Of a stretch of 64,000 nucleotides of DNA, positions 1-48,222 are shown in pieces. How positions within the stretch are numbered: the first letter of the stretch is position 1; each line of letters starts with the position of its first letter. The notes under the pieces were generated by a model, which was given only the letters and a program-made list of their open reading frames with translations, was not told where the DNA came from and made no database searches. Made by a program: the position numbers and the translations under genes. This DNA comes from Candidatus Uhrbacteria bacterium (GTDB lineage: Bacteria > Patescibacteriota > Patescibacteriia > UBA9934 > GWF2-40-263): positions 68,313 to 132,312 of the forward strand of contig JACPHT010000006.1 of assembly GCA_016188475.1 (NCBI GenBank), read 5' to 3'.

Positions 1-1213
1 TGTTGATCTGGAAGCAGGTCCAGACATGGTGAGAATTATGACAGTTCACGGCGCAAAAGGATTGGAGTTTCGATATGTTTTTGTTGTAAATCTTGTTGAT
101 CGTAAGTTTCCAACTCAACGCCGCGGTGAAGCGATTCCTCTTCCCGATGAAATTTTGAATAACGAAAAAACACTTGACGAATCGCTGAATCATCTTGAAG
201 AAGAGCGTCGGTTATTTTATGTTGCAATGACCCGAGCAAAAGAAGGTTTGTTTTTTACATCAGCGGAAGATTATGGTGGAGCTCGAAGTAGGAAGTTGTC
301 GAGGTTTTTAGATGAAGTAGGAATTGAAAAAGGTCTGAAAGGACAGAAAGGTCGGGAAGGTCAAGAGATCATCGAATTTTTTGATGATGATCAAGAGGTA
401 ATAGACAAAACAGAATTGCAATCATACACTCCAAAACGATTTTCGTTCACACAACTTGCGGCTTTTCAAACTTGTCCATTGCAATATAAGTTCGCGCATA
501 TTCTTCGGGTTCCAGTTCTTGGAAAATGGACATTTTCGTTTGGTAAAACAATGCACAATACATTGCATCGATATTTTTTAGCTTGGATGGAACGATCTGG
601 TCAGCGACAAACAACACTTTTTGCAAAAGAAAATCGAGACGCATCAAAAGACGGTTTACCAGTCGGGATTGATGAACTTTTTGAAATGTACAATTCTTGT
701 TGGCAAGATGATTGGTATCCAAACGATCAAACGAGAGAAAAGTATCGTAAAAATGGAAAGGATCAACTTGTTTCTTACGTTTCATTTTTAAAAGAAAATC
801 CTCCAGAGCCGATTGCCCTTGAACAAGGTTATACATATAAAATCGGTGACATTGTTTTGAAAGGTCGTATGGATCGAATCGATCGTTTTGAGGACGGCGT
901 TGAAATTATTGATTACAAAACTGGAAGTCCTAAAATAGAAAAAAAACTTGATCGCTTTGACAAAGAACAATTATGGTTGTATCAGCTTGCCGCGCGCGAT
1001 GTTCTTGGCTTAAACGTGAAAAAACTTTCGTTCGTATATTTGGAAAACAATTCCGTTGTTTCTTTTCTTGGAACAGATGATGATCTTTTGAAATTGCAAG
1101 AAGATATAGTCGATCGAGTAGCGCGAATCCGTGAAAGTCATTTTCCTCCAACTCCGGGATTTCATTGCCAGTATTGTGATTTTGCTGACATCTGTGAGTT
1201 TCGACAGATTTAG
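1..1213 (+). CDS. UvrD/PcrA-family helicase C-terminal region fused to a PD-(D/E)XK Cas4/AddB-like nuclease domain (5'-partial; start lies upstream of the window)
   Basis: ORF 26..1213 opens with helicase motif VI-like VHGAKGLEF...YVAMTRAKEGL. The downstream part carries nuclease motifs (GRMDRID...IIDYKTG...YQLAA) with a Cys near its N-terminus (QTCPLQY) and C-terminal CQYCDFADIC (4-Cys cluster typical of Cas4/AddB). The frame is open to position 1. Confidence 0.7.
   Translation, partial: VDLEAGPDMVRIMTVHGAKGLEFRYVFVVNLVDRKFPTQRRGEAIPLPDEILNNEKTLDESLNHLEEERRLFYVAMTRAKEGLFFTSAEDYGGARSRKLSRFLDEVGIEKGLKGQKGREGQEIIEFFDDDQEVIDKTELQSYTPKRFSFTQLAAFQTCPLQYKFAHILRVPVLGKWTFSFGKTMHNTLHRYFLAWMERSGQRQTTLFAKENRDASKDGLPVGIDELFEMYNSCWQDDWYPNDQTREKYRKNGKDQLVSYVSFLKENPPEPIALEQGYTYKIGDIVLKGRMDRIDRFEDGVEIIDYKTGSPKIEKKLDRFDKEQLWLYQLAARDVLGLNVKKLSFVYLENNSVVSFLGTDDDLLKLQEDIVDRVARIRESHFPPTPGFHCQYCDFADICEFRQI
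327..366. repeat. 9-bp-periodic GAAAGGTC-type tandem array (copy 1 of 4), inside the helicase-nuclease CDS
   Basis: aaaaggtctg|aaaggacag|aaaggtcgg|gaaggtcaa; translated in frame as the collagen-like GXY stretch EKGLKGQKGREGQE. Confidence 0.45.
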
Positions 1214-1228
1214 GATAGAATATCCAAT

Positions 1229-1549
1229 ATGTCCCTTACTCCAATACGCGATTTGCTTACAACAGCGCTTAAACGAGCAAATGTTTCAACACAGGTGAAC
1301 GCAACACAAGTTGTAACAAAAGCAAACGAAGAGATCGCGAGAATACTGCCTCAAGAACAAAATTCCGACGCTCGCGCAGTTTCCTTGAAGGATAATATAT
1401 TAACGATCGAAAGTTGTCACTCATCAACCGCCCAATTCGTATCAGAATTTGAACAACAGATTTTAAACGAGATAAAAAAAAAATTTCCCGAACAAAAAAT
1501 TATAAGAGTCAGATATCGAATAAGTAAAACATCAAATATCGCATTATGA
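1229..1549 (+). CDS. small DUF721-like protein (putative nucleic-acid-binding protein)
   Basis: 106 aa ORF; N-terminal RDLLTTALKR motif reminiscent of DUF721. It sits tightly spaced after the helicase gene. Confidence 0.35.
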   Translation: MSLTPIRDLLTTALKRANVSTQVNATQVVTKANEEIARILPQEQNSDARAVSLKDNILTIESCHSSTAQFVSEFEQQILNEIKKKFPEQKIIRVRYRISKTSNIAL

Positions 1550-1929
1550 CATTGCGTTGGTTTTTGACAATAATGACATTGTCAACTGTTGCGGCCTGGA
1601 TAGGTTGGGTCTTTGTGCTTAATACAACCGATCCGATAACAACGGGTTTAGTCGGATATTTACTTTTTTATTTGACCCTTGCAATTGCATTTTCTGGTAC
1701 AACAGCTTTATTTGGAACTTTAATTCGAATTTGGTTTCATCCTGATGGTATTCCTTATCGTCAGACAGTTCGTGCGCTGAGACAGAGCGTTATTTTTACA
1801 GGACTTTTCGTTAGCGCAATGATACTTCTTTCGTTTGATATAATGCGATGGTGGTCAGCCATTCTGCTTGTTGTGTTGTTTTCTTTGATTGAGCTATTAT
1901 TTTCAGCTCATAACAATCAATCCTTTTGA
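1546..1929 (+). CDS. hypothetical integral membrane protein
   Basis: 127 aa with 3-4 hydrophobic helices; 4-bp overlap with the upstream ORF. Confidence 0.4.
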   Translation: MTLRWFLTIMTLSTVAAWIGWVFVLNTTDPITTGLVGYLLFYLTLAIAFSGTTALFGTLIRIWFHPDGIPYRQTVRALRQSVIFTGLFVSAMILLSFDIMRWWSAILLVVLFSLIELLFSAHNNQSF

Positions 1930-3053: not shown

Positions 3054-3797
3054 ATGAAACGTCGCGCTCGTTTATCATTAATTGTTTTAATAATTGTTTT
3101 TTTGCTCATTTTTGCAAGAGGTTGGTTTGAGCGCGGAATCCAAATTGTGCAAAGGCCATTGGCGCGAGCAGGAACTTGGTTTTATAAACAGCCGAATTTT
3201 TTAGAAGTTGAAGATAAATTTGTCTCACTCGCGATTGATAAAGCAAAATATGAACAGCTGGTTCGAGAGAATCAGGAATTAAAAGACGCTTTGAATTATA
3301 TCGAGCGGTCGGATTTATCGTCTGTAATAGCAACGGTTATTGCTAGATCAAATACAGTACAGACTTCGACATTTTCAATTGATCGCGGAGATCAGGATGG
3401 AATAAAAGTCGGTGATCCTGTAATTATTAAAGACGGGGTTCTTGTCGGAAAAATTATTTCTGTTACGCAAAAAAGTTCAACTGTAAGAACTTTAGCTGAC
3501 CCTTCTGTTGCGACAGCGGTTAGTTTGTTAAACCAGTCTCAAACAATCGGCGTTGCAGAAGGAATGACAGGAAATTTGCTGAAATTGAAATTTATTCCTC
3601 AGGAAACAAAAATTGATATTAATAATTTGGTTGTGACTTCGGGGCTTGAACCGCGTATACCGGCCGGATTACTTGTCGGAATTATTAATGACGTCCGACC
3701 TGAACAAAACGCTCCGTTTCTGGAAGCAATCATTGAACCGCTCGTAGATTCTCGTTTGCATACTTTGGTGAATATACTTATTCAGAAACAAATATGA
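3054..3797 (+). CDS. mreC: rod-shape-determining protein MreC
   Basis: N-terminal TM helix, coiled coil, then beta domain with the LVVTSGLEPRIPAGLLVG motif; position directly after mreB. Confidence 0.8.
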   Translation: MKRRARLSLIVLIIVFLLIFARGWFERGIQIVQRPLARAGTWFYKQPNFLEVEDKFVSLAIDKAKYEQLVRENQELKDALNYIERSDLSSVIATVIARSNTVQTSTFSIDRGDQDGIKVGDPVIIKDGVLVGKIISVTQKSSTVRTLADPSVATAVSLLNQSQTIGVAEGMTGNLLKLKFIPQETKIDINNLVVTSGLEPRIPAGLLVGIINDVRPEQNAPFLEAIIEPLVDSRLHTLVNILIQKQI

Positions 3798-4297
3798 TGC
3801 GAGTCGCAGTCTCAACAATTTTATTTCTTATTGTATTTCTTATTGAAATAAGTTTTATAAGTTCACTTCCTTCGGTTTTTTCAACGATCCCTCTTATTTT
3901 TGCGCTAAGTGTTTATTTGATTCAGCATCAAGGAGTCACTGATGGAATCGTGTGGATGATCGGTTATGGTTTTTTAATAGATTTGATGCATTTAAGCAGC
4001 ACTCGATTCTCAACAATACCTGCGATAGCGGCATCAATAGTTGCCGCAATTTCAGCAAAGCATCTTTTTTCAAACCGATCTTTTTACGGAGTTATTGCTT
4101 GCGCTGTAAGCAGTTATTTGACATACATTATTTTTGAGATTTTTTTGACACGAGCTGAATGGTCAATATTTTTTCAAACTCATGCTGAAAGACTCGGAAT
4201 GTTGATAGTTGTCGTAGTAATATTCTTTTCGCTCGCGCCTAGCATAAGAAGAATAGTTCAAGTGATGTTTATATCATCACATAAACGATTATATTAA
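3794..4297 (+). CDS. mreD: rod-shape-determining protein MreD (polytopic membrane protein)
   Basis: 167 aa multi-TM protein overlapping mreC by 4 bp and followed by PBP2. Confidence 0.55.
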   Translation: MMRVAVSTILFLIVFLIEISFISSLPSVFSTIPLIFALSVYLIQHQGVTDGIVWMIGYGFLIDLMHLSSTRFSTIPAIAASIVAAISAKHLFSNRSFYGVIACAVSSYLTYIIFEIFLTRAEWSIFFQTHAERLGMLIVVVVIFFSLAPSIRRIVQVMFISSHKRLY

Positions 4298-6202
4298 ATG
4301 TCAAATCAAATACCTCATTCTAGATTGTTCGTTTTGCAGGAAAACGGACCGATTGGAAAACTCACAGAAAGAAGTGGTGTTGCTGTTTTTGAACAACTTC
4401 CAAATACAAGGTGTATAGGATCGGTGATCACTTTGGGTCGTTTGCGTTTTTCACTTATTATTTTTTTCACACTGTTATTTATTTTTTTTGTTCGTTCGGT
4501 CCAACTTCAAATTTTTCAAGGAAATCATTTCCGCGCTCTTGCTGAATCGAATAAATATAGAACCGAACGTCTTGTTCCACAACGAGGTTTGATTTTTGAT
4601 AGAAATGGAATCGTGCTTGCACAGAACATTCCATCTTTTGTCTTAACAATGACAATAGCGGATTTGCCAAAGAACGAACAAAAGCGTTATGAGTTATTTG
4701 ATATTGTAAGCAAATTGGCCGGTGTTCAACCAACAGACTTGGATTTACTCATGACTCAATATGCGAAAAATCAAACCGAAGCGATCCCAGTTAAGAGAAA
4801 CATAAATTTTGAAAGAGCAATGAATCTTGAAATCGAAATCAAAAATCTTCAAGGATTTAATTTACAAACTTCAACTTTAAGAATGTATCCGCAGACGATC
4901 CCTTCACTTTCACATATTCTTGGATACACAGGGAAAATTACCGAAGATGATCTTTCTGTTTTAAAAGATCAAGGATATAAACCAATTGATGTTATTGGAA
5001 AAACAGGCGTTGAACGCGTAGATGAAAGCTTGTTACGAGGTCAGCCTGGCGAGGTCGTGACCGAAGTTGACGCAAGAGGAAAAGAATTGACAGTTGTGTC
5101 ACGTACTAATCCTGTTGTCGGAGCTAATCTGACTCTTACAATAGACTCTGAATTTCAAAAGTTTATTGAAACGCGACTTGAAAAAACAATGCAATCCGTT
5201 GGTTCAACAAAAGGTTCGGTCGTTGTGCTGAATCCAAAAAACGGAGAAGTTTACGCGCTCGTGAGCTTGCCGACTTTTGATAACAATCTTTTCGCGCAGG
5301 GAATCGAAGAAGATACATATAAAAAATTAGCTGACGATAAAGATCAACCTTTATTTTTTCGAGCGATTGCGGGTGAATTTCCATCAGGCTCCACATTCAA
5401 ACCGTTTGTTGCCTACGCCGCGCTTGTTGAAAAAATTATTAACGAAAATACGTCGTTTCTTTCAACAGGCGGAATTAGAATTAACGAATGGTTTTTTCCT
5501 GATTGGAAAGCCGGTGGGCACGGGATTACAAATGTTAGAAAAGCGCTTGCTGAATCAGTGAATACATTTTTTTACATTATTGGCGGCGGGCTTGATCAAA
5601 TCAATGGTTTAGGTGTTGAACGGATAACTGATTACGCAAGACGTTTTGGATTTGGTAAACCAACAGGGATTGATCTGCCGTCAGAAGCCGATGGATTTTT
5701 GCCTTCGAAGGAATGGAAAGAAGAAGTCAAAGGAGAACGTTGGTATGTCGGCGACACGTATCATCTTGCGATTGGACAAGGAGATTTATTAACAACGCCG
5801 CTTCAGATGGCGCACGCGACCGGAATTATAGCGAACAAAGGTGTGGATGTTTTACCACATGTCGTAAATAAAATAAACGATGTTGAAAAAGATATATCAT
5901 CTCAAACACTCGACTCGCTTGATTCGTATGCTCTTTCTGTTGTGAGACAGGGAATGCGACAAACTGTGACACAGGGAAGTGCGCGTTCGTTGTCTGTATT
6001 ACCGGTTTCTGTTGCTGGAAAAACTGGAACAGCCCAAGCTCCAGGACATGAGAAATATCATTCATGGTTCACGGGTTTTGCTCCGTACGAGGATTCGGAA
6101 ATCGCCTTAGCAATCATTGTTGAAGACGGTGGAGAGAGCACTGACGCCGCAGTCCCTCTTGCAAAGGAAATAATCTATTGGTGGTTGACAAATCGCAGAT
6201 GA
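4298..6202 (+). CDS. mrdA: penicillin-binding protein 2 (peptidoglycan D,D-transpeptidase)
   Basis: N-terminal TM helix, dimerisation domain, SGSTFKPF (SxxK) and KTGTAQ transpeptidase motifs; sits in the mreBCD context. Confidence 0.85.
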   Translation: MSNQIPHSRLFVLQENGPIGKLTERSGVAVFEQLPNTRCIGSVITLGRLRFSLIIFFTLLFIFFVRSVQLQIFQGNHFRALAESNKYRTERLVPQRGLIFDRNGIVLAQNIPSFVLTMTIADLPKNEQKRYELFDIVSKLAGVQPTDLDLLMTQYAKNQTEAIPVKRNINFERAMNLEIEIKNLQGFNLQTSTLRMYPQTIPSLSHILGYTGKITEDDLSVLKDQGYKPIDVIGKTGVERVDESLLRGQPGEVVTEVDARGKELTVVSRTNPVVGANLTLTIDSEFQKFIETRLEKTMQSVGSTKGSVVVLNPKNGEVYALVSLPTFDNNLFAQGIEEDTYKKLADDKDQPLFFRAIAGEFPSGSTFKPFVAYAALVEKIINENTSFLSTGGIRINEWFFPDWKAGGHGITNVRKALAESVNTFFYIIGGGLDQINGLGVERITDYARRFGFGKPTGIDLPSEADGFLPSKEWKEEVKGERWYVGDTYHLAIGQGDLLTTPLQMAHATGIIANKGVDVLPHVVNKINDVEKDISSQTLDSLDSYALSVVRQGMRQTVTQGSARSLSVLPVSVAGKTGTAQAPGHEKYHSWFTGFAPYEDSEIALAIIVEDGGESTDAAVPLAKEIIYWWLTNRR

Positions 6203-9120: not shown

Positions 9121-10317
9121 ATGTCGCGAAAATTGCTCCTTGGACTGGATATCGGTTCTTCTTCAATCAAGCTGTGTCAACTCGCAGAGACTGGAACTGG
9201 GCTCAAGCTAGTCAAGTTCGATCAGTGTATGTTGCCACCAAAGGCTATCGTAGATGGTGCTTTGATAGACTACAGGGCAGTCGTGGAAAAGCTTCGTGAA
9301 ACAGCAAGACTGAACAAGTGTGAAGGTGCTCAATGTGCGATCTCGATGTCAGGGCACAATGTTATCGTCAAGCAGATCTCGATTCCAGAGATGACTCAAA
9401 AGGAACTGGAAGAGTCAATGCAGTGGGAAGCGGAGCAGTACATTCCGTTTGACATAAAGGATGTCAACGTTGATGTTCAAATCCTAAATCCCAAAGCAGG
9501 TTATGGACAGATGAAGGTTCTGTTCGTTGTCGCGAAGAAGGACACCATTAATGACTACATTCATGCGGTCCAAGAAGCGGGTCTTCGTCCAGTAGTCGTG
9601 GACATCGACACGCTCGCGGTCCAAAACGCATTCGACTTAAACTACGGCTGTCCTCCAAACGAGGTTGTTGCGCTTATCAATGTTGGTGCGTCATGCATCA
9701 ACATCAATGTGATTTCAAACGGAATTACAACCTTCACGCGTGACATATCGAATGGCGGGTTGCTCATGACAGAAGAGACAATGAAACAGCTCAATGTTTC
9801 GTGGGAAGAGGCTATGCACTACCAAATCGCTGGTGATGACACGGTTTCAGATTCCGGGACAGAACTCTTTCGTGAAGTGAGAAAACTTGAGGAACGCGTT
9901 TCCGAAATTCTTGTAACTGAAATTCAGCGTTCTCTCGATTTCTTCGCTGCAACGACCATCAATGCTGACATCGCACGAATTTACTTGAGCGGCGGTGCTT
10001 CTCAACCTTCAGCTTTCATAAGGGCTCTTGAGCGGCGACTGAAAATTCCTGTTGAGATAATCAATCCGTTCAAGAACATTAGCGTTGACCCGTCCGCTTT
10101 CAACCCCGATCTTCTTCGCACGATGGAACCGATTGCCGCAGTCGCGGTTGGTCTTGCAAGACGTTTCAAGGGCGACACAAGGATCGGTGGAAATGATGTC
10201 AGGATCAATCTCTGCCCATCTGACACGAAGTCTTCAAGATACTCACTCGGCAATCCTTTCAAACTTCCAATCTCTGTCAGGATTCCTTTCACTAAGAGAG
10301 TATTGACTCTCTCGTAA
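9121..10317 (+). CDS. pilM: type IV pilus assembly protein PilM (actin-like ATPase fold), fused at its 3' end to a remnant of the pilN start
   Basis: LLGLDIGSSSIKL, KQISIPEMTQKELEESMQWEAEQYIPFD and VVDIDTLAV are typical PilM blocks. AGGAGG lies 7 nt upstream of the ATG at 9121. The C-terminal tail ...GGNDVRINLCPSD resembles the PilN N-terminus (MxRINLLP). Confidence 0.8.
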   Translation: MSRKLLLGLDIGSSSIKLCQLAETGTGLKLVKFDQCMLPPKAIVDGALIDYRAVVEKLRETARLNKCEGAQCAISMSGHNVIVKQISIPEMTQKELEESMQWEAEQYIPFDIKDVNVDVQILNPKAGYGQMKVLFVVAKKDTINDYIHAVQEAGLRPVVVDIDTLAVQNAFDLNYGCPPNEVVALINVGASCININVISNGITTFTRDISNGGLLMTEETMKQLNVSWEEAMHYQIAGDDTVSDSGTELFREVRKLEERVSEILVTEIQRSLDFFAATTINADIARIYLSGGASQPSAFIRALERRLKIPVEIINPFKNISVDPSAFNPDLLRTMEPIAAVAVGLARRFKGDTRIGGNDVRINLCPSDTKSSRYSLGNPFKLPISVRIPFTKRVLTLS

Positions 10318-32769: not shown

Positions 32770-34193
32770 ATACTTGATCTAAGTGTTTTGAAATCATTAC
32801 GAGTTATCATTCCTGTAACAAACAAACAAGCAATGTACGCAATCACACAAATAGGAATCACAGCCAACCATCCGATTTGAGTTATAAGCAACTTCCCTAT
32901 CACGACCATAATAATTCCTGAACCAACAATTAAAATTGAATTTTTCAAAAGTGGCGCAAACTTGAATGACAAAATTACTTTTGGAACAAAGTAGAGTCCC
33001 ATCAAAAACATGAGTGAAAAACTAATCAACGCAGCATAAGCCGCTCCTTTAATTCCAAAATTTGGAATAAACAATACGTTCAAGATTATATTGAGCACCA
33101 TTGTTATTCCCATTATTGTTGTTTTTGTAGATTGTTTGTTCGCGGCATTTAATAATGAACCGATTGGAAAATCCAAAAAAATCGGAAATAAAACAAAAAT
33201 CAATACAGATAGAACCGGAGCTGATGCACTGTAAGAATCGCCTGCAAGCAAGACAACGTTTGGCGCGATCAACCAAAGTCCAAAAACAATCGGTGTTGAT
33301 AAAATCAACATGTACCACATTGATCTGTTAAACGTTTTGCTAAGGTTTTCATTATCAGAATCAATAAGTGAACTTAGGTTCGGGTACAAAGCGGCAATGA
33401 ATGCAAGAGGTAAAAATTGAAATGCGTATGTAAATTTATACGCCAGACCATAAAGACCAACTGAAGTGGCATCCATGAATTTTGAAATAAACACAGTGTC
33501 AACGTATGAATATACTTTTACAAAAATTGCCGCAAGAGCAAATGGCAAAGCGGCTTTAAGTAAAAATCTGATAAACTTCCAATCCAAAATTGGTAAAAAT
33601 AATTTAAAGCCAAATTTTCGAATTAAAACAGAACTTGATAGTACGACATTTGTGAGACTTCCGGCCATAAGAGCTAATACAAGAAGTTGCAAAGAAGGAT
33701 GGAGCCAAAGTATCAAAGCACCGACAATCGCCGTTATAAGTTGTCCTGAAAACATTCCAATCGACTCAATCGAGAGAATGTGATGACCTCGCAACACACC
33801 GTAAAAAAATAAATGAATCGAATCGAGAATCAAAACAAGTCCAGTGAATAAAACAAGTGACAAAATCTGAATTTCATATCCCATCAAAAAAGTTGAACCA
33901 ACAGCGAGAAAATAACCGATGAATAAAAGCGGAAATTTTACTGTCAGAGTTCTTCGAATAAGTTTATGAGTATCATCAGGGTGCTTTGCAATTTCACGAA
34001 TTATCACAGGCGTAATTCCAAAGTCTGCGATTACCGAAAAAATCATTGATATTGAAACCGCCAAAAAATATATTCCGGTTTGTTCCGGCATCATTATTCT
34101 TGCAAGGAAAAGAAAATAAACAAATGCGATGGCTTTTTGGCCAATTGAAGCGATCGTTAAAAACATGGTATTTTTGGCAAGACGACTCATCAT
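32766..34193 (-). CDS. oligosaccharide flippase (Wzx / polysaccharide biosynthesis protein, MOP superfamily)
   Basis: 475 aa with about 12-14 TM helices; N-terminal KNTMFLTIASIGQKAIAFVYFLFLAR is typical of Wzx-type flippases; sits in the glycosyltransferase cluster. Confidence 0.7.
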   Translation of the reverse strand: MMSRLAKNTMFLTIASIGQKAIAFVYFLFLARIMMPEQTGIYFLAVSISMIFSVIADFGITPVIIREIAKHPDDTHKLIRRTLTVKFPLLFIGYFLAVGSTFLMGYEIQILSLVLFTGLVLILDSIHLFFYGVLRGHHILSIESIGMFSGQLITAIVGALILWLHPSLQLLVLALMAGSLTNVVLSSSVLIRKFGFKLFLPILDWKFIRFLLKAALPFALAAIFVKVYSYVDTVFISKFMDATSVGLYGLAYKFTYAFQFLPLAFIAALYPNLSSLIDSDNENLSKTFNRSMWYMLILSTPIVFGLWLIAPNVVLLAGDSYSASAPVLSVLIFVLFPIFLDFPIGSLLNAANKQSTKTTIMGITMVLNIILNVLFIPNFGIKGAAYAALISFSLMFLMGLYFVPKVILSFKFAPLLKNSILIVGSGIIMVVIGKLLITQIGWLAVIPICVIAYIACLFVTGMITRNDFKTLRSSI

Positions 34194-34239
34194 ATGTTTG
34201 AAATCTTACGATAATTTACTGATTTTGGGAAGTTTTAAT

Positions 34240-34267
34240 AAAAAAACTCGGTGTGTTAATCACCGAG
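34240..34267 (-). terminator. rho-independent terminator of cassette gene A1 (hairpin ctcggtg/caccgag + T7 on the minus strand)
   Basis: The A1 stop codon lies in the hairpin loop; a 7-nt A-run on plus becomes a T-run on minus. Confidence 0.5.
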
Positions 34268-35080
34268 AAAAGTCAGAGAAGTGAGCCTTTCACGCCTGTC
34301 TTTAACAATCTCGCTTAGAGAACCTGACCCTATTTTGGTCTGGCCAATAGCGTCAAGTTTGTAACCAGAGAGACGCAACTGTTTAGACTGATTACCTTCA
34401 GCAAATTCCGCTCGCCAAAGGCTCTGAAGCACTGGTACGAAGTTATCTTGAACGATCTTTTCGACTTCTTCGTGATGAGTTTCAAGCCATTCGTCCTTTG
34501 CTGGAACATCTGGAATTGGAAGTAATGGTTGACCGATCTTCCACCACAGAAACTTCCAGTGGCCGAACAGATTTCCGGCACGTATTACTTCGTTCTCAAG
34601 AATGATGCGGTCTCGTTCGCGAACCAGATGAGCGATTGTGGACGCTTTCCACTCAACACTTGGAGTTCCATCTCGTAAAAACGCGAAACATATCTGAAGA
34701 GTGGTTTGCGTTGGAGGTCTTAAAGACGAAAGTTGAACGTGAGCGACTCGAAGCGCGTCCACAAGATCGTAGCGAACTCCTTCAACTTCGCGTTTCAGTT
34801 CACCTTTTTCTCGGCCGAGAAGTCGTTTGAGAAGTTGCTCGTCGTTTGGAGAAAAGACAACTCTCCATTTGTCTTGGTGTTCGAACATTCCGTCGTAACG
34901 AAGTAAAAGTTCTGTTCGAAATCCAACAACAGCTGGAATCAATCCGATGTGAACCAAATTCACTAAATCGATTCCATCAGGCAGATCATCAGTGAAGATA
35001 TTGAGTTCCCTGCTAACTAAGGGACCTTTTAGAGCGTCCACGAGTGATACGTGAACAGGAACAAACCTTCTTTCTTCCAT
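34256..35080 (-). CDS. hypothetical protein A1 of divergent two-gene cassette (no recognisable domain)
   Basis: Start preferred at ATG 35078-35080 (MEERRFVPVHV...), preceded by AAGGAGA. G/C-ending codon bias differs from neighbouring glycosyltransferase genes. Weak R-x6-H (RAGNLFGH) motif only. Confidence 0.5.
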   Translation of the reverse strand: MEERRFVPVHVSLVDALKGPLVSRELNIFTDDLPDGIDLVNLVHIGLIPAVVGFRTELLLRYDGMFEHQDKWRVVFSPNDEQLLKRLLGREKGELKREVEGVRYDLVDALRVAHVQLSSLRPPTQTTLQICFAFLRDGTPSVEWKASTIAHLVRERDRIILENEVIRAGNLFGHWKFLWWKIGQPLLPIPDVPAKDEWLETHHEEVEKIVQDNFVPVLQSLWRAEFAEGNQSKQLRLSGYKLDAIGQTKIGSGSLSEIVKDRRERLTSLTFLGD

Positions 35081-35212
35081 GGTTCTCCTTATTAAGCCTA
35101 AAGGTACGACCATAGAAGTTAAACATTGTTCGTATTGATTGTCAAAGCTGATCGTGCTAGTTTAATTCATGGTGAAAACGAACGTTCCTTTCAATTTATC
35201 GGAGGTGTGCTA

Positions 35213-36505
35213 ATGGAACTTACATCGATCCAAGATGCTGAAACGAAAATTTCGGAGCTTGTTGAGCATTCAAGTCGGCTTCAAGCTGAGTTGCGTGAAA
35301 TTCAAACAAGATCAAGATACGCTGACAGCGAGAAGGATGTCGGGTATTTTAATGAAGAGCGCATTCGTATTCGCAATAACATTGATACTACCCAGAGAGA
35401 GATACTTATCCTAGAACAATATATTCGTGAAGCCCGAGTTAGGACTCTGTCATCTCCTCCAAGAACTATAAAGTCAGCACGAGATGAAGTGGATACTCTT
35501 TTGGTCCAACTTCCTGAACTCCGATCGAGGATTGATTCAACTTCTGAAAGGGGTCTGTCATACACAAAGATGATTGCTCAGAGAAGATTTATCTCTGCTA
35601 GGCTCCATTTTCTTGGTGATTGGATCAAAGAACAAAGACAGCTCCCGAATAACACCGTCGTCAAAGTCGACGATACCATACCGAGTTGTTCAGGAGATGC
35701 GGCTAGAGAGATAAACACACTATCAGAAAAAATCGCCGATCTGATACGTGTATTTGAAGACTTCGATGTTTCTGGACTTTCAGAAGAACGCCTCTCACTT
35801 CTGCTTCAAATAAAGCAGAAAGAAGCGCGGATCGGATTTTTGAGAGAACTTTTGCCTCGGCTTTCCAGAAACCGTCTTCCTACGAACTTTGTTCCTCCAG
35901 ACAGTGTCGCTGAAGCCAGATCTGAATGTGAAAGACTGGCAAAAGAAGTGAACTCGATACAACACAGTCTGAAACGCCTGCCAAGACACGACAATTCTGG
36001 ACGACGTGCAGAACTGGCCAACATGAAATGTGGGGTCGATCAGCGCTTAAACCAACTGCATCGCTGGATCAGTGAACAGGATGAGATAACACGAGCTGGA
36101 ATAACGCGAGAGTATGGAGACATACTTAAGAAAAGCGCGACAGACGAACCAGAGTCAATACAAAACGCAACAACAGAGTTCAAGAGAATTGTCACCTTCC
36201 TTGGCGCACACAAGGAGTCAGAAGTTTCATGTGTGGAAACTTTCAATAAGCTCCGTCAGCGCAAGAACTTTCTTGCTCGATGGATTTCGGAACTACGACA
36301 CAAAGATGGAAATGAATTCGCTGGTATTGATCTTGAAACTCAAGAAGGAATCCTGTCCGCTGTTGACAGACTTTTATCTCTAATCTCACAGGATGATAAA
36401 ACGATAATATTCGATCATCCTGAAAGAGTGGCGGTCTGGAATGCTTTACGAAGCAGGATCGGTTTCAAACCCATGCATTGCAACGTCAGCAAGCTTACTA
36501 CTTAA
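35213..36505 (+). CDS. hypothetical protein A2 of divergent two-gene cassette (430 aa, all-helical, Arg/Glu-rich, internal repeats)
   Basis: GGAGG lies 7 nt upstream of ATG 35213. Four repeated helical blocks: RRFISARLHFLGDWIKEQ / RIGFLRELLPRL / QLHRWISEQDE / NFLARWISELR. No TM helix, no catalytic motif recognised. Confidence 0.5.
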   Translation: MELTSIQDAETKISELVEHSSRLQAELREIQTRSRYADSEKDVGYFNEERIRIRNNIDTTQREILILEQYIREARVRTLSSPPRTIKSARDEVDTLLVQLPELRSRIDSTSERGLSYTKMIAQRRFISARLHFLGDWIKEQRQLPNNTVVKVDDTIPSCSGDAAREINTLSEKIADLIRVFEDFDVSGLSEERLSLLLQIKQKEARIGFLRELLPRLSRNRLPTNFVPPDSVAEARSECERLAKEVNSIQHSLKRLPRHDNSGRRAELANMKCGVDQRLNQLHRWISEQDEITRAGITREYGDILKKSATDEPESIQNATTEFKRIVTFLGAHKESEVSCVETFNKLRQRKNFLARWISELRHKDGNEFAGIDLETQEGILSAVDRLLSLISQDDKTIIFDHPERVAVWNALRSRIGFKPMHCNVSKLTT

Positions 36506-36536
36506 AAACAGAGGTTTCCCCTCTGTCTTTTTTTAA
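36506..36536. terminator. bidirectional rho-independent terminator between cassette gene A2 and rpsI
   Basis: acagagg-tttcc-cctctgt hairpin flanked by an A-run (5') and a T-run (3'). Confidence 0.55.
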
Positions 36537-46743: not shown

Positions 46744-48222
46744 ATGGCACGTGAATCATTGATCAGGTTTGCTGAAAACGATTCTCCAGTTCATTCCAAT
46801 TCATATCGCTTACGGCGCTTTCTAAACTGGTTCCCTCTCGGATTCGGTTATGCAAGTCTCGTGTTCATGCGCTATGGTTTAAACGCTGGCCAGCACGCGC
46901 TTGGAGACGACAACCTAATGTCAGAAGCGGATTTCTACAACATCTTCGCCTGGGGCGCGGCGTCCTACGTGATCGGATTTCTAACCCTAAGCCCACTTGT
47001 TGATCGAAAAGGCGGACGCTGGGGCATGATAACAGGACTCATGGGAACGATCTCTGTCAATCTAATAATGGCGCTCGTAGTGAGGAAGACGATTGACGAA
47101 ACTGCACACCTGCCGTTCGTATTCTGCATGACAGCGCTTTATTGCGCGAACATGTTCTTCCAGTCGCTTGGAGCGATGTCGATCGTTGCCGTAAATGTTC
47201 CGTGGTTTCATGTGCGAGAGCGCGGAAAATTCGCGACGATCTTCGGAGTGCTAATAGCGCTTGGCAACTACTTCGCGTTCGATTGGGGGTACGCGATCGT
47301 TGATGCGACGCGCAAATACATCAATCTTGACAAGCTTTCATTTACAGCTTCCATTTTCCAAGGGCTTCTTGGAACTGGTGGAAAAGCCGTAAACGAAAGT
47401 TGGTGGTTGTTCTTGTTCCCTGCGCTGTTCGGACTCTTCTGGCTTATTCCCATAGTGATCACACTTCGAAATTCACCAAAAGAGGCAAGCTTCAACGATT
47501 TCGAAACAGGTATCGAGCACATGAGTGCTTCTCAACTTACGATGTTTCAAATGTTGAAGGAAGTCTTCCTCAATCCAAAACACAGAGTCGTCCTGGTTAT
47601 CTGTCTTATCGAATTCTGCTCTGGCGCAATTCGAAATGGAAGTATTCAGACATATCCTAAGTTCGCAGAACATATAGGATTCAAACACGACTTTGCGCTT
47701 TCTGAACATTGGGGACTCTTTCTTCTGATCGCCGGGGTAATCGGAGCTAACGCGACTGGATTCATATCTGACAAGTGCTTCAACTCGCGTCGCGGTCCTA
47801 TGGCGGTAATTCTGTATGTGCTCATGGTATTCGGAATCTCGATGATACTTTTTTCGCTTGGTTCAAACGCGCCGCATAGCGGATCTATCAATACTGGAAT
47901 CGGACTGTTCATCCTTGCAACTTGTGTAATAGGCGTTCACGGAATTCTATCAGGAACAGCCGCGGCTGAATTCTCTGGCACGAAAAACACGGCAAAAGCA
48001 GTCGGAATCATAGACGGTGCTGTATATCTTGGAACATCCGCACAATCGTTTTTGATGGGCCTGTTCGTTCCAATCTTCCAGCCGGGAGCATTAGCTCACA
48101 AGATCACGGATCCATCCTCATGGATGGCTTGGCCAATCATCCTATTACCGTTTGCAGTGATAGGAACCATACTCGGAACGAGCATTTACAGCGCTTATCC
48201 GAAAGGAAAACATACTCACTGA
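46744..48222 (+). CDS. MFS transporter, organophosphate:Pi antiporter (OPA)-like (sugar-phosphate/glycerol-3-phosphate transporter type); compositionally atypical gene
   Basis: 12 predicted TM helices and a DRKGGRW motif in loop 2-3 as in the GlpT/UhpT family. Noticeably more G/C-ending codons than flanking genes. Confidence 0.55.
   Translation: MARESLIRFAENDSPVHSNSYRLRRFLNWFPLGFGYASLVFMRYGLNAGQHALGDDNLMSEADFYNIFAWGAASYVIGFLTLSPLVDRKGGRWGMITGLMGTISVNLIMALVVRKTIDETAHLPFVFCMTALYCANMFFQSLGAMSIVAVNVPWFHVRERGKFATIFGVLIALGNYFAFDWGYAIVDATRKYINLDKLSFTASIFQGLLGTGGKAVNESWWLFLFPALFGLFWLIPIVITLRNSPKEASFNDFETGIEHMSASQLTMFQMLKEVFLNPKHRVVLVICLIEFCSGAIRNGSIQTYPKFAEHIGFKHDFALSEHWGLFLLIAGVIGANATGFISDKCFNSRRGPMAVILYVLMVFGISMILFSLGSNAPHSGSINTGIGLFILATCVIGVHGILSGTAAAEFSGTKNTAKAVGIIDGAVYLGTSAQSFLMGLFVPIFQPGALAHKITDPSSWMAWPIILLPFAVIGTILGTSIYSAYPKGKHTH

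Follow-up and report, generated by a model that had tools for sequence, protein, structure and literature searches.

Two divergently transcribed open reading frames (ORFs), called A1 and A2 here, form a small locus in the genome of a groundwater Candidatus Uhrbacteria bacterium, a member of the Candidate Phyla Radiation (CPR; Patescibacteria). The 64,000-nucleotide stretch of contig JACPHT010000006.1 (assembly GCA_016188475.1) in which they lie is referred to as the window, and positions are those of the window unless another contig is named. The two ORFs are separated by a gap of 132 bp (35081-35212), as the original prediction, made from the sequence alone, had described. One flank contains the polysaccharide genes wzx, GT4, GT2, and GT2, and the other contains rpsI, rplM, rplQ, rpoA, rpsD, rpsK, rpsM, infA, and alaS; no defense genes were present in these flanks, the neighbors being the ribosomal-protein operon and the polysaccharide cluster. 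The original prediction had taken the pair for a single, horizontally acquired two-gene module, possibly with a defense, toxin-antitoxin (TA), or addiction function. The comparisons reported here indicate that the locus probably consists of two unrelated orphan genes that arrived in the same gap at separate times, and not of a co-inherited defense or TA module.

The features of the locus are collected in Table 1. The A1 product is identical to the NCBI protein HYV69_01785. Longer annotated starts for A1 (285 aa) and A2 (456/459 aa) were rejected, being without a Shine-Dalgarno (SD) site and not fitting the alignments of homologs; the long A2 starts additionally fall in host DNA, outside the insert that carries A2. 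No RNA family was found by Rfam between positions 33500 and 37500 or in the rest of the window, which contains no rRNA gene.

Table 1. Positions of genes, signals, and protein segments in the window
Feature	Position	Strand	Remarks
A1 coding sequence	34256-35080	-	ORF of 274 aa; SD-bearing
A1 SD site	35084-35090	-	AAGGAGA, 3 nt upstream of ATG; read from the sequence
A1 promoter-like element	35117-35145	-	TTGACA (35140-35145), 17-nt spacer, TTAACT (35117-35122)
A1 intrinsic terminator	34240-34267 (hairpin 34247-34267)	-	CTCGGTG-ATTAACA-CACCGAG stem-loop, then T-run
Conserved motif upstream of wzx	34194-34246		CTTCA(C)AAAA…CGTAAGATT
Strain-specific insert	35150-36503	.	~1,354 bp, borders +/-3 nt, AG microhomology; A2 with 63-bp leader
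Possible A2 hybrid promoter	35139-35166	+	host TTGTCA (35139-35144), 16-nt spacer, insert TTTAAT (35161-35166)
Imperfect palindrome in A2 leader	35173-35191		GAAAACGAACGTTCCTTTC
A2 SD site	35201-35205	+	GGAGG, 7 nt upstream of ATG
A2 coding sequence	35213-36505	+	ORF of 430 aa; SD-bearing
A2 repeats	35213-35437, 35438-35641, 35642-35869, 35870-36082, 36083-36298	+	
A2 conserved C-terminal domain	36299-36502	+	~65 aa, …VWNxLRxRIGxxPM, common to P0008
Native rpsI intrinsic terminator	36503-36534 (stem-loop 36508-36526)	.	A-run on one side, T-run on the other
PilM gene	9121-10317		SD-bearing; true start 9121
Major facilitator superfamily (MFS) transporter gene	46744-48222		SD-bearing

The spacer between rpsI and wzx in related genomes

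Relatives of A1 were identified by a word-indexed search of 5.8 billion proteins, and other loci were retrieved from GTDB species representatives with wzx as the query. Five A1 relatives with 61 to 75% identity were found, all on Uhrbacteria-type contigs (L001, L002, L004, L005, and L006), and a profile built from the alignment of A1 recovered the same six proteins without any addition. In addition, the corresponding slot of L012 contained a distant A1 homolog of 292 aa (26% identity, hhalign probability 95%, E value of 2e-8) with an AGGAGG site; every homolog recovered, and with it the A1 family, was confined to Uhrbacteria. In the five closer relatives, the order was the rpsI stop codon, a hairpin with a T-run, the promoter-like element (in L006, the -35 box only), an SD site, A1, the A1 terminator, the wzx promoter region, and wzx, with rpsI, A1, and wzx all on one strand. 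A2 was absent from all of the other A1-carrying genomes (6 of 6: L001, L002, L004, L005, L006, and L012); A1 and A2 are therefore not one self-contained unit, and on this co-occurrence check the proposed two-gene module was not upheld.

Further states of the slot were found in genomes that carry the wzx-GT4-GT2-GT2 cluster without A1 (L011, L013, L014, and L015). The slot was empty in L011, L014, and L015, in which wzx directly follows rpsI. In L013 (Uhrbacteria UBA12432), it held two unrelated orphan ORFs, namely, an ORF at 3454-4995 (+), which encodes a 513-aa protein with a hydrophobic segment (orf513), and an ORF of 258 aa on the opposite strand at 5139-5915 (orf258), with a G+C content at third codon positions (GC3) of 0.71 versus ~0.48 for its neighbors; neither orf513 nor orf258 had a Pfam or PADLOC match. 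The rpsI-wzx spacer thus showed at least four occupancy states: empty, A1, A1 with A2, and orf513 with orf258. From this alternation of an empty slot, A1, A1 with A2, and other ORFs, it follows that the 60- to 160-bp spacer after rpsI is a recurrent insertion hotspot in Uhrbacteria, which extends from the rpsI terminator, at the end of the alpha ribosomal-protein operon, to the promoter of the wzx/glycosyltransferase cluster. The synteny of this interval, which the original prediction had singled out for comparison with relatives, was variable (empty in three genomes, A1 alone in six, other ORFs in L013).

Alignment of the window with L001, L004, and L005 showed a single gap, with the rpsI terminator T-run on one side and the A1 -35 box on the other. 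The junction conserved in the relatives (rpsI stop codon, hairpin, TTTTTAG, TTTTGACAA) is interrupted there in the window by the 1,354 bp that carry A2, and among the A1 loci compared, this insert was seen only in the lineage of the window's genome. The identity of ribosomal proteins to those of the window was 93.8% for L001, 87% for L002, and 82% for L006, and given the resulting order (window, L001), L002, L006, one gain of A2 is more parsimonious than at least three precise losses. No terminal inverted or direct repeats were found at the insert borders, and no transposase or integrase was found within the insert, in which A2 is the sole gene; an origin of A2 as an insertion sequence, transposon, or integron cassette was therefore rejected. 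There was likewise no attC at the insert border, where the A2 stop codon abuts the host terminator and leaves no room for such a site. An assembly chimera is unlikely because the same A2 junction was reproduced on an independently assembled Logan contig.

Base composition and expression signals

An SD core near the start codon was present in only 4 of the 58 genes in the window, those for PilM, A1, A2, and the MFS transporter. A1 and A2 both had a GC3 of 0.38, versus a window mean of 0.302 +/- 0.047, and ranked third and fourth among the 55 large ORFs. The four SD-bearing genes were exactly the four with the highest GC3 (0.376 to 0.50), and all others had values of 0.347 or less. The strong SD sites (AAGGAGA and GGAGG), in contrast to housekeeping genes without one, and the larger share of G/C-ending codons than in the adjacent glycosyltransferase genes had both been noted in the original prediction; that nearly all other genes lack an SD site and that GC3 is raised (0.38 against a mean of 0.30 in the window) was confirmed. 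Furthermore, the SD core upstream of A1 was present in 7 of 7 genomes, the remaining leader being poorly conserved, and the A1 homologs had the highest GC3 of their neighborhoods in L001 and L002. The retention of the A1 SD site and GC3 across genomes with saturated synonymous sites suggests selection or repeated exchange of alleles from a GC-richer pool. With SD sites in a nearly SD-free genome, raised GC3, a patchy presence in the slot, and no housekeeping family for either product, both have the appearance of accessory genes gained by horizontal transfer; in this respect the original prediction held.

The promoter-like element of A1, TTGACA-17-TTAACT, was kept in L001, L002, L004, and L005, and in L006 the -35 box only was kept; its agreement with the consensus and its conservation point to it as the A1 promoter. 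The A1 terminator hairpin folded at -10.3 kcal/mol (z score of -4.9), with the A1 stop codon, TAA, within the loop, and a hairpin with a T-run was found at the equivalent position in every A1 homolog, although the hairpin sequences varied. A conserved motif, CTTCA(C)AAAA…CGTAAGATT, was observed upstream of wzx in the window and in the homologous spacers of L001, L002, L004, and L005; it is probably the promoter of the polysaccharide cluster, separate from the A1 unit.

For A2, a hybrid promoter could be formed from a host -35 half and an insert-borne -10 half. This candidate shares positions with the A1 -35 box, which is on the other strand, and a consensus promoter scan did not call it. The terminator downstream of A2 is the native rpsI terminator, reused and predicted to act in both directions, because its hairpin, ACAGAGGGAAACCTCTGT, followed by a T-run, is kept after rpsI in L001, L002, L004, and L005, all of which are without A2, and because of the position of the junction; L006 has a different hairpin at this position. 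Its folding energies were -15.2 kcal/mol for the minus strand and -10 kcal/mol for the plus strand; the z scores of this hairpin were -3.4/-4.6. The stop codon of A2 (36503-36505) spans the border between insert and host and lies in the A-tract beside the stem. The earlier statements that each gene has a terminator of its own and that both stop codons lie inside hairpins thus applied to A1 and had to be revised for A2, whose hairpin is that of rpsI and whose stop codon is in the tract flanking the stem. The shared control region proposed for the pair was not supported either, since the A1 promoter predates A2 and the two sets of signals were juxtaposed secondarily. The insert-borne A2 leader also contains, downstream of the putative -10 element and upstream of the SD site, an imperfect palindrome, GAAAACGAACGTTCCTTTC, which could be an operator or a chance occurrence.

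The A1 and A2 proteins

A1 had dN/dS ratios (nonsynonymous to synonymous substitution) of 0.12 to 0.17 and is therefore a real gene under purifying selection. It evolves fastest in its neighborhood, with 74% identity to the L001 protein versus 77 to 96% for the neighbors. The protein was predicted to be soluble and mildly acidic (isoelectric point of 5.95). An AlphaFold2 model from the six-sequence alignment had a predicted local distance difference test (pLDDT) score of 34 and was unusable for comparing folds. This low-confidence model contained both alpha and beta elements, and A1 may tentatively be regarded as a soluble alpha/beta protein. No match to A1 was found in Pfam, NCBIfam, PADLOC, PHROGs, or PDB sequence profiles, by tblastn against phage and plasmid collections, or by a scan of IMG/VR with the A1 alignment, and no glycosyltransferase, regulator, or membrane features were recognized. 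The weak HEPN-like motif mentioned in the original prediction did not withstand comparison: A1 shares Rx4-6H strings with HEPN-domain proteins, but all four strings vary among the six homologs, and no HEPN profile in Pfam was matched. A PD-(D/E)xK reading, based on the string “VEWK” on a predicted strand, was also rejected, the motif being shifted in the L012 homolog.

A2 was predicted to be all-helical and is rich in Arg (10.9%) and Glu (9.8%), as had been described, but it consists of five repeats and not four. These are helical hairpins of ~70 aa, followed by a C-terminal domain, and their signature begins with P-x-S-I-x-x-A-x-x-E and ends with R-x-x-F-L-x-x-W-I-x-E. When 1.84 billion representative proteins were scanned in full with HMMER, only two true relatives were identified, P0008 (439 aa; E value of 3.5e-26; 31% identity over the full length), encoded on the 1.7-kb contig L007, and P0010 (234 aa; E value of 8e-7), with a GC content of 0.53. 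A hidden Markov model built from the repeats of P0008 and P0010 only gave five matches in A2 (independent E values of 6e-14 to 3e-4); by repeat count, A2 and P0008 each have five and P0010 has three. The A2 C terminus is ~9 residues short of that of P0008. No relatives of A2 were found in scans of genome-contig and metagenome-contig collections, by tblastn against phage and plasmid collections, or by a scan of IMG/VR with the A2 alignment. On the two contigs that encode A2 homologs, there was no A1-like sequence beyond a 43-aa match at chance level (E value of 0.09).

Several further observations were made on these two contigs. On L008, the P0010 gene (136-840) is convergent with a gene for a 258-aa IS66/Mutator-like DDE transposase (862-1638, minus strand), an adjacency that hints that the A2 family travels with mobile DNA. 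On L007, a 26-aa ORF (20-100), ending in TAA, precedes the P0008 gene (113-1432) in the same frame, and A2 aligned across this in-frame stop in tblastn; a pseudogene, a sequencing error, or readthrough is possible. A tRNA-Thr(GGT) gene lies at 1605-1675 of L007, ~170 bp downstream of the P0008 gene, and a 10-nt copy of the 5' end of this tRNA (GCCGATGTAG) lies ~85 bp before it.

Searches of the A1 and A2 homologs against Pfam, NCBIfam, PHROGs, and PADLOC returned nothing significant. Neither A1 nor A2 matched a Pfam, NCBIfam, or PDB entry, so that no housekeeping family was found for either protein, and the A2 repeat has no Pfam model. In PADLOC-DB v2, no match was obtained for A1, its homologs, P0008, or P0010. 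A2 gave a single weak match, to the coiled-coil region of LmuB (E value of 7e-5), and there was a weak PHROG coiled-coil match; the LmuB match was restricted to coiled-coil segments without the ATPase region, was not reproduced in P0008 or P0010, and was not accompanied by an SMC_N, AAA, or ABC domain in Pfam. The defense, TA, or addiction function that had been suggested for the pair was not borne out by these searches. The structure model of A2, computed from the single sequence, had a moderate pLDDT of 61. Compared with helical-hairpin and coiled-coil proteins (ESCRT-III/CHMP4B, prefoldin, and SMC/LmuB arms), A2 matched over ~75 residues at 10 to 15% identity, and the likeness is therefore one of generic fold; A2 has no ESCRT-III core, no prefoldin beta hairpins, and no ATPase heads. 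It may, with low confidence, be a nonenzymatic rod or scaffold of five long alpha-helical hairpins with a small C-terminal domain, which would most likely act by binding a partner. A2, P0008, and P0010 constitute a tiny, undescribed, and very rare helical-repeat family that may be associated with mobile DNA.

Origin of the locus and its meaning

The explanation considered likely is that two independent single-gene acquisitions were stacked in a recurrent Uhrbacteria hotspot. As the comparisons show, A1 was already in the slot in the ancestor of the sub-clade, as a monocistronic gene with its own sigma-70-like promoter, SD site, and terminator, and has since been inherited under purifying selection while evolving faster than all of its neighbors. 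After the split from the lineage of L001, a foreign fragment of 1.35 kb with A2 was gained exactly between the rpsI terminator and the A1 -35 box. The insertion would have been illegitimate and not site specific, because there are no repeats, no recombinase, and only 2 nt of microhomology, and because host bases complete the stop codon; transcription of A2 would now start from the hybrid promoter and end at the bidirectional hairpin of rpsI. The A1 and A2 proteins may well not need each other, a suggestion offered with low confidence.

The locus resembles genomic islets and insertion hotspots between conserved operons, in which unrelated genes are present, absent, or replaced at one spacer, composition is atypical, and the insertion points lie in the interval from a terminator to a promoter, where no gene is disrupted. 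It combines a patchy presence at a conserved syntenic position with an atypical composition, the two features by which a horizontally acquired genomic islet is recognized. It differs from such islets in that the rpsI-wzx site has no tRNA gene, integrase, transposase, or flanking repeats, in that the lineage with the hotspot is a CPR group whose genome is very small, and in that one occupant, A1, has persisted throughout a sub-clade under purifying selection.

Several points weigh against two stacked acquisitions as the complete account. A1 and A2 are nearly identical in GC content (0.45 and 0.44) and GC3 (0.38 and 0.376), and both have an SD site, which leaves some room for a shared donor pool or a functional link between them. 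A simple ancient acquisition of A1 followed by amelioration does not explain an SD site and raised GC3 at saturated synonymous divergence (dS). In addition, the hybrid promoter of A2 is a consensus match only, and the genomes compared included no relative more than 95% identical to that of the window by which the insertion could be dated.

Among the alternatives, the one that survives best, though unlikely, is that A2 is a captured fragment without function in its host, that is, neutral foreign DNA (acquired, e.g., by natural transformation) that is intact because it is recent. The occurrence of A2 in one genome lineage only, the absence of mobility machinery, and the end of the insert at the end of the ORF, with a stop codon completed by host bases and a C terminus ~9 aa shorter than that of P0008, would all fit a captured fragment, and the in-frame stop in the related L007 gene suggests that decay occurs in the A2 family. 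Nevertheless, the 430-codon ORF is uninterrupted, its strong SD site is ideally spaced, a usable -10 element and a terminator are in place, and the repeat and C-terminal motifs are shared with P0008, to which A2 is 31% identical over its full length.

Somewhat less probable still is a native origin for A1, in which it would not be foreign but would serve the surface polysaccharide (wzx/glycosyltransferase) cluster downstream of it as an accessory component or a regulator. The wzx-GT4-GT2-GT2 cluster exists without A1 in four of the loci compared, the A1 gene ends in a terminator of its own and wzx is preceded by a separate, conserved promoter region, the GC3 and SD site of A1 are atypical in every genome, and A1 lacks glycosyltransferase, regulator, or membrane features, although the purifying selection acting on it, and its position directly before wzx and in the same orientation in all seven genomes, would agree with such a role.

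A more speculative proposal, given little credence, is that A2, P0008, and P0010 represent an undescribed family of tandem 70-aa hairpin repeat proteins whose genes are carried singly by mobile or transforming DNA among groundwater bacteria; that A2 has been kept since it modulates A1, through the overlapping -35 boxes or by protein binding; that A1 is a fast-evolving factor with a conserved SD site, involved in interplay with a host, a phage, or an episymbiont; and that the pair is an emerging two-component accessory system at its birth.

The least probable alternative is the functional two-gene accessory module, a new defense, TA, or addiction system with a shared divergent control region: the genes are divergent with putative -35 boxes that overlap, both have an SD site in a nearly SD-less genome and a similar GC3, both are orphans, and A2 has its weak LmuB match, but A2 occurs in none of the six other A1 genomes, the two contigs with A2 homologs offer nothing like A1 above chance level, genomes without A2 also keep the A1 promoter and terminator, the LmuB match is missing from P0008 and P0010 and comes without an ATPase domain, no known toxin, antitoxin, or defense family was matched, the Rx4-6H motifs of A1 are not conserved, and the neighbors are housekeeping and polysaccharide genes. 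Type II TA systems consist of two adjacent, cotranscribed genes that are usually small (about 70 to 150 aa each). The A1-A2 pair shares with these and with two-gene antiphage systems a compact layout, a foreign composition, and expression signals of its own; it differs from them in being divergent and not an operon, in the large size of its products (274 and 430 aa), in its separate promoter and terminator signals, and in having no co-occurrence elsewhere, no family match, and no defense island.

Two acquisitions stacked in one hotspot would remove a false lead, in that the A1-A2 pair would not be a new defense or TA cassette. Orphan accessory genes in an insertion hotspot are of an already known kind, and the new element is the undescribed helical-repeat family of A2. 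The locus provides a record of a compact, clearly bounded insertion hotspot in CPR bacteria of a lineage whose genome is very small. It is also a clean example of the capture of a foreign gene without mobility machinery, the captured gene having borrowed its terminator, and probably one half of its promoter, from the host. Furthermore, the combination of an SD site with raised GC3 picks out exactly PilM, A1, A2, and the MFS transporter and may flag acquired genes in SD-poor Parcubacteria, or else a special translational class. About half of Parcubacteria are reported to have no detectable anti-SD motif (PMC9297842). The conservation of the A1 SD site in seven genomes suggests that the ribosomes of these bacteria can still use SD sites, which bears on that reported loss of the anti-SD motif.

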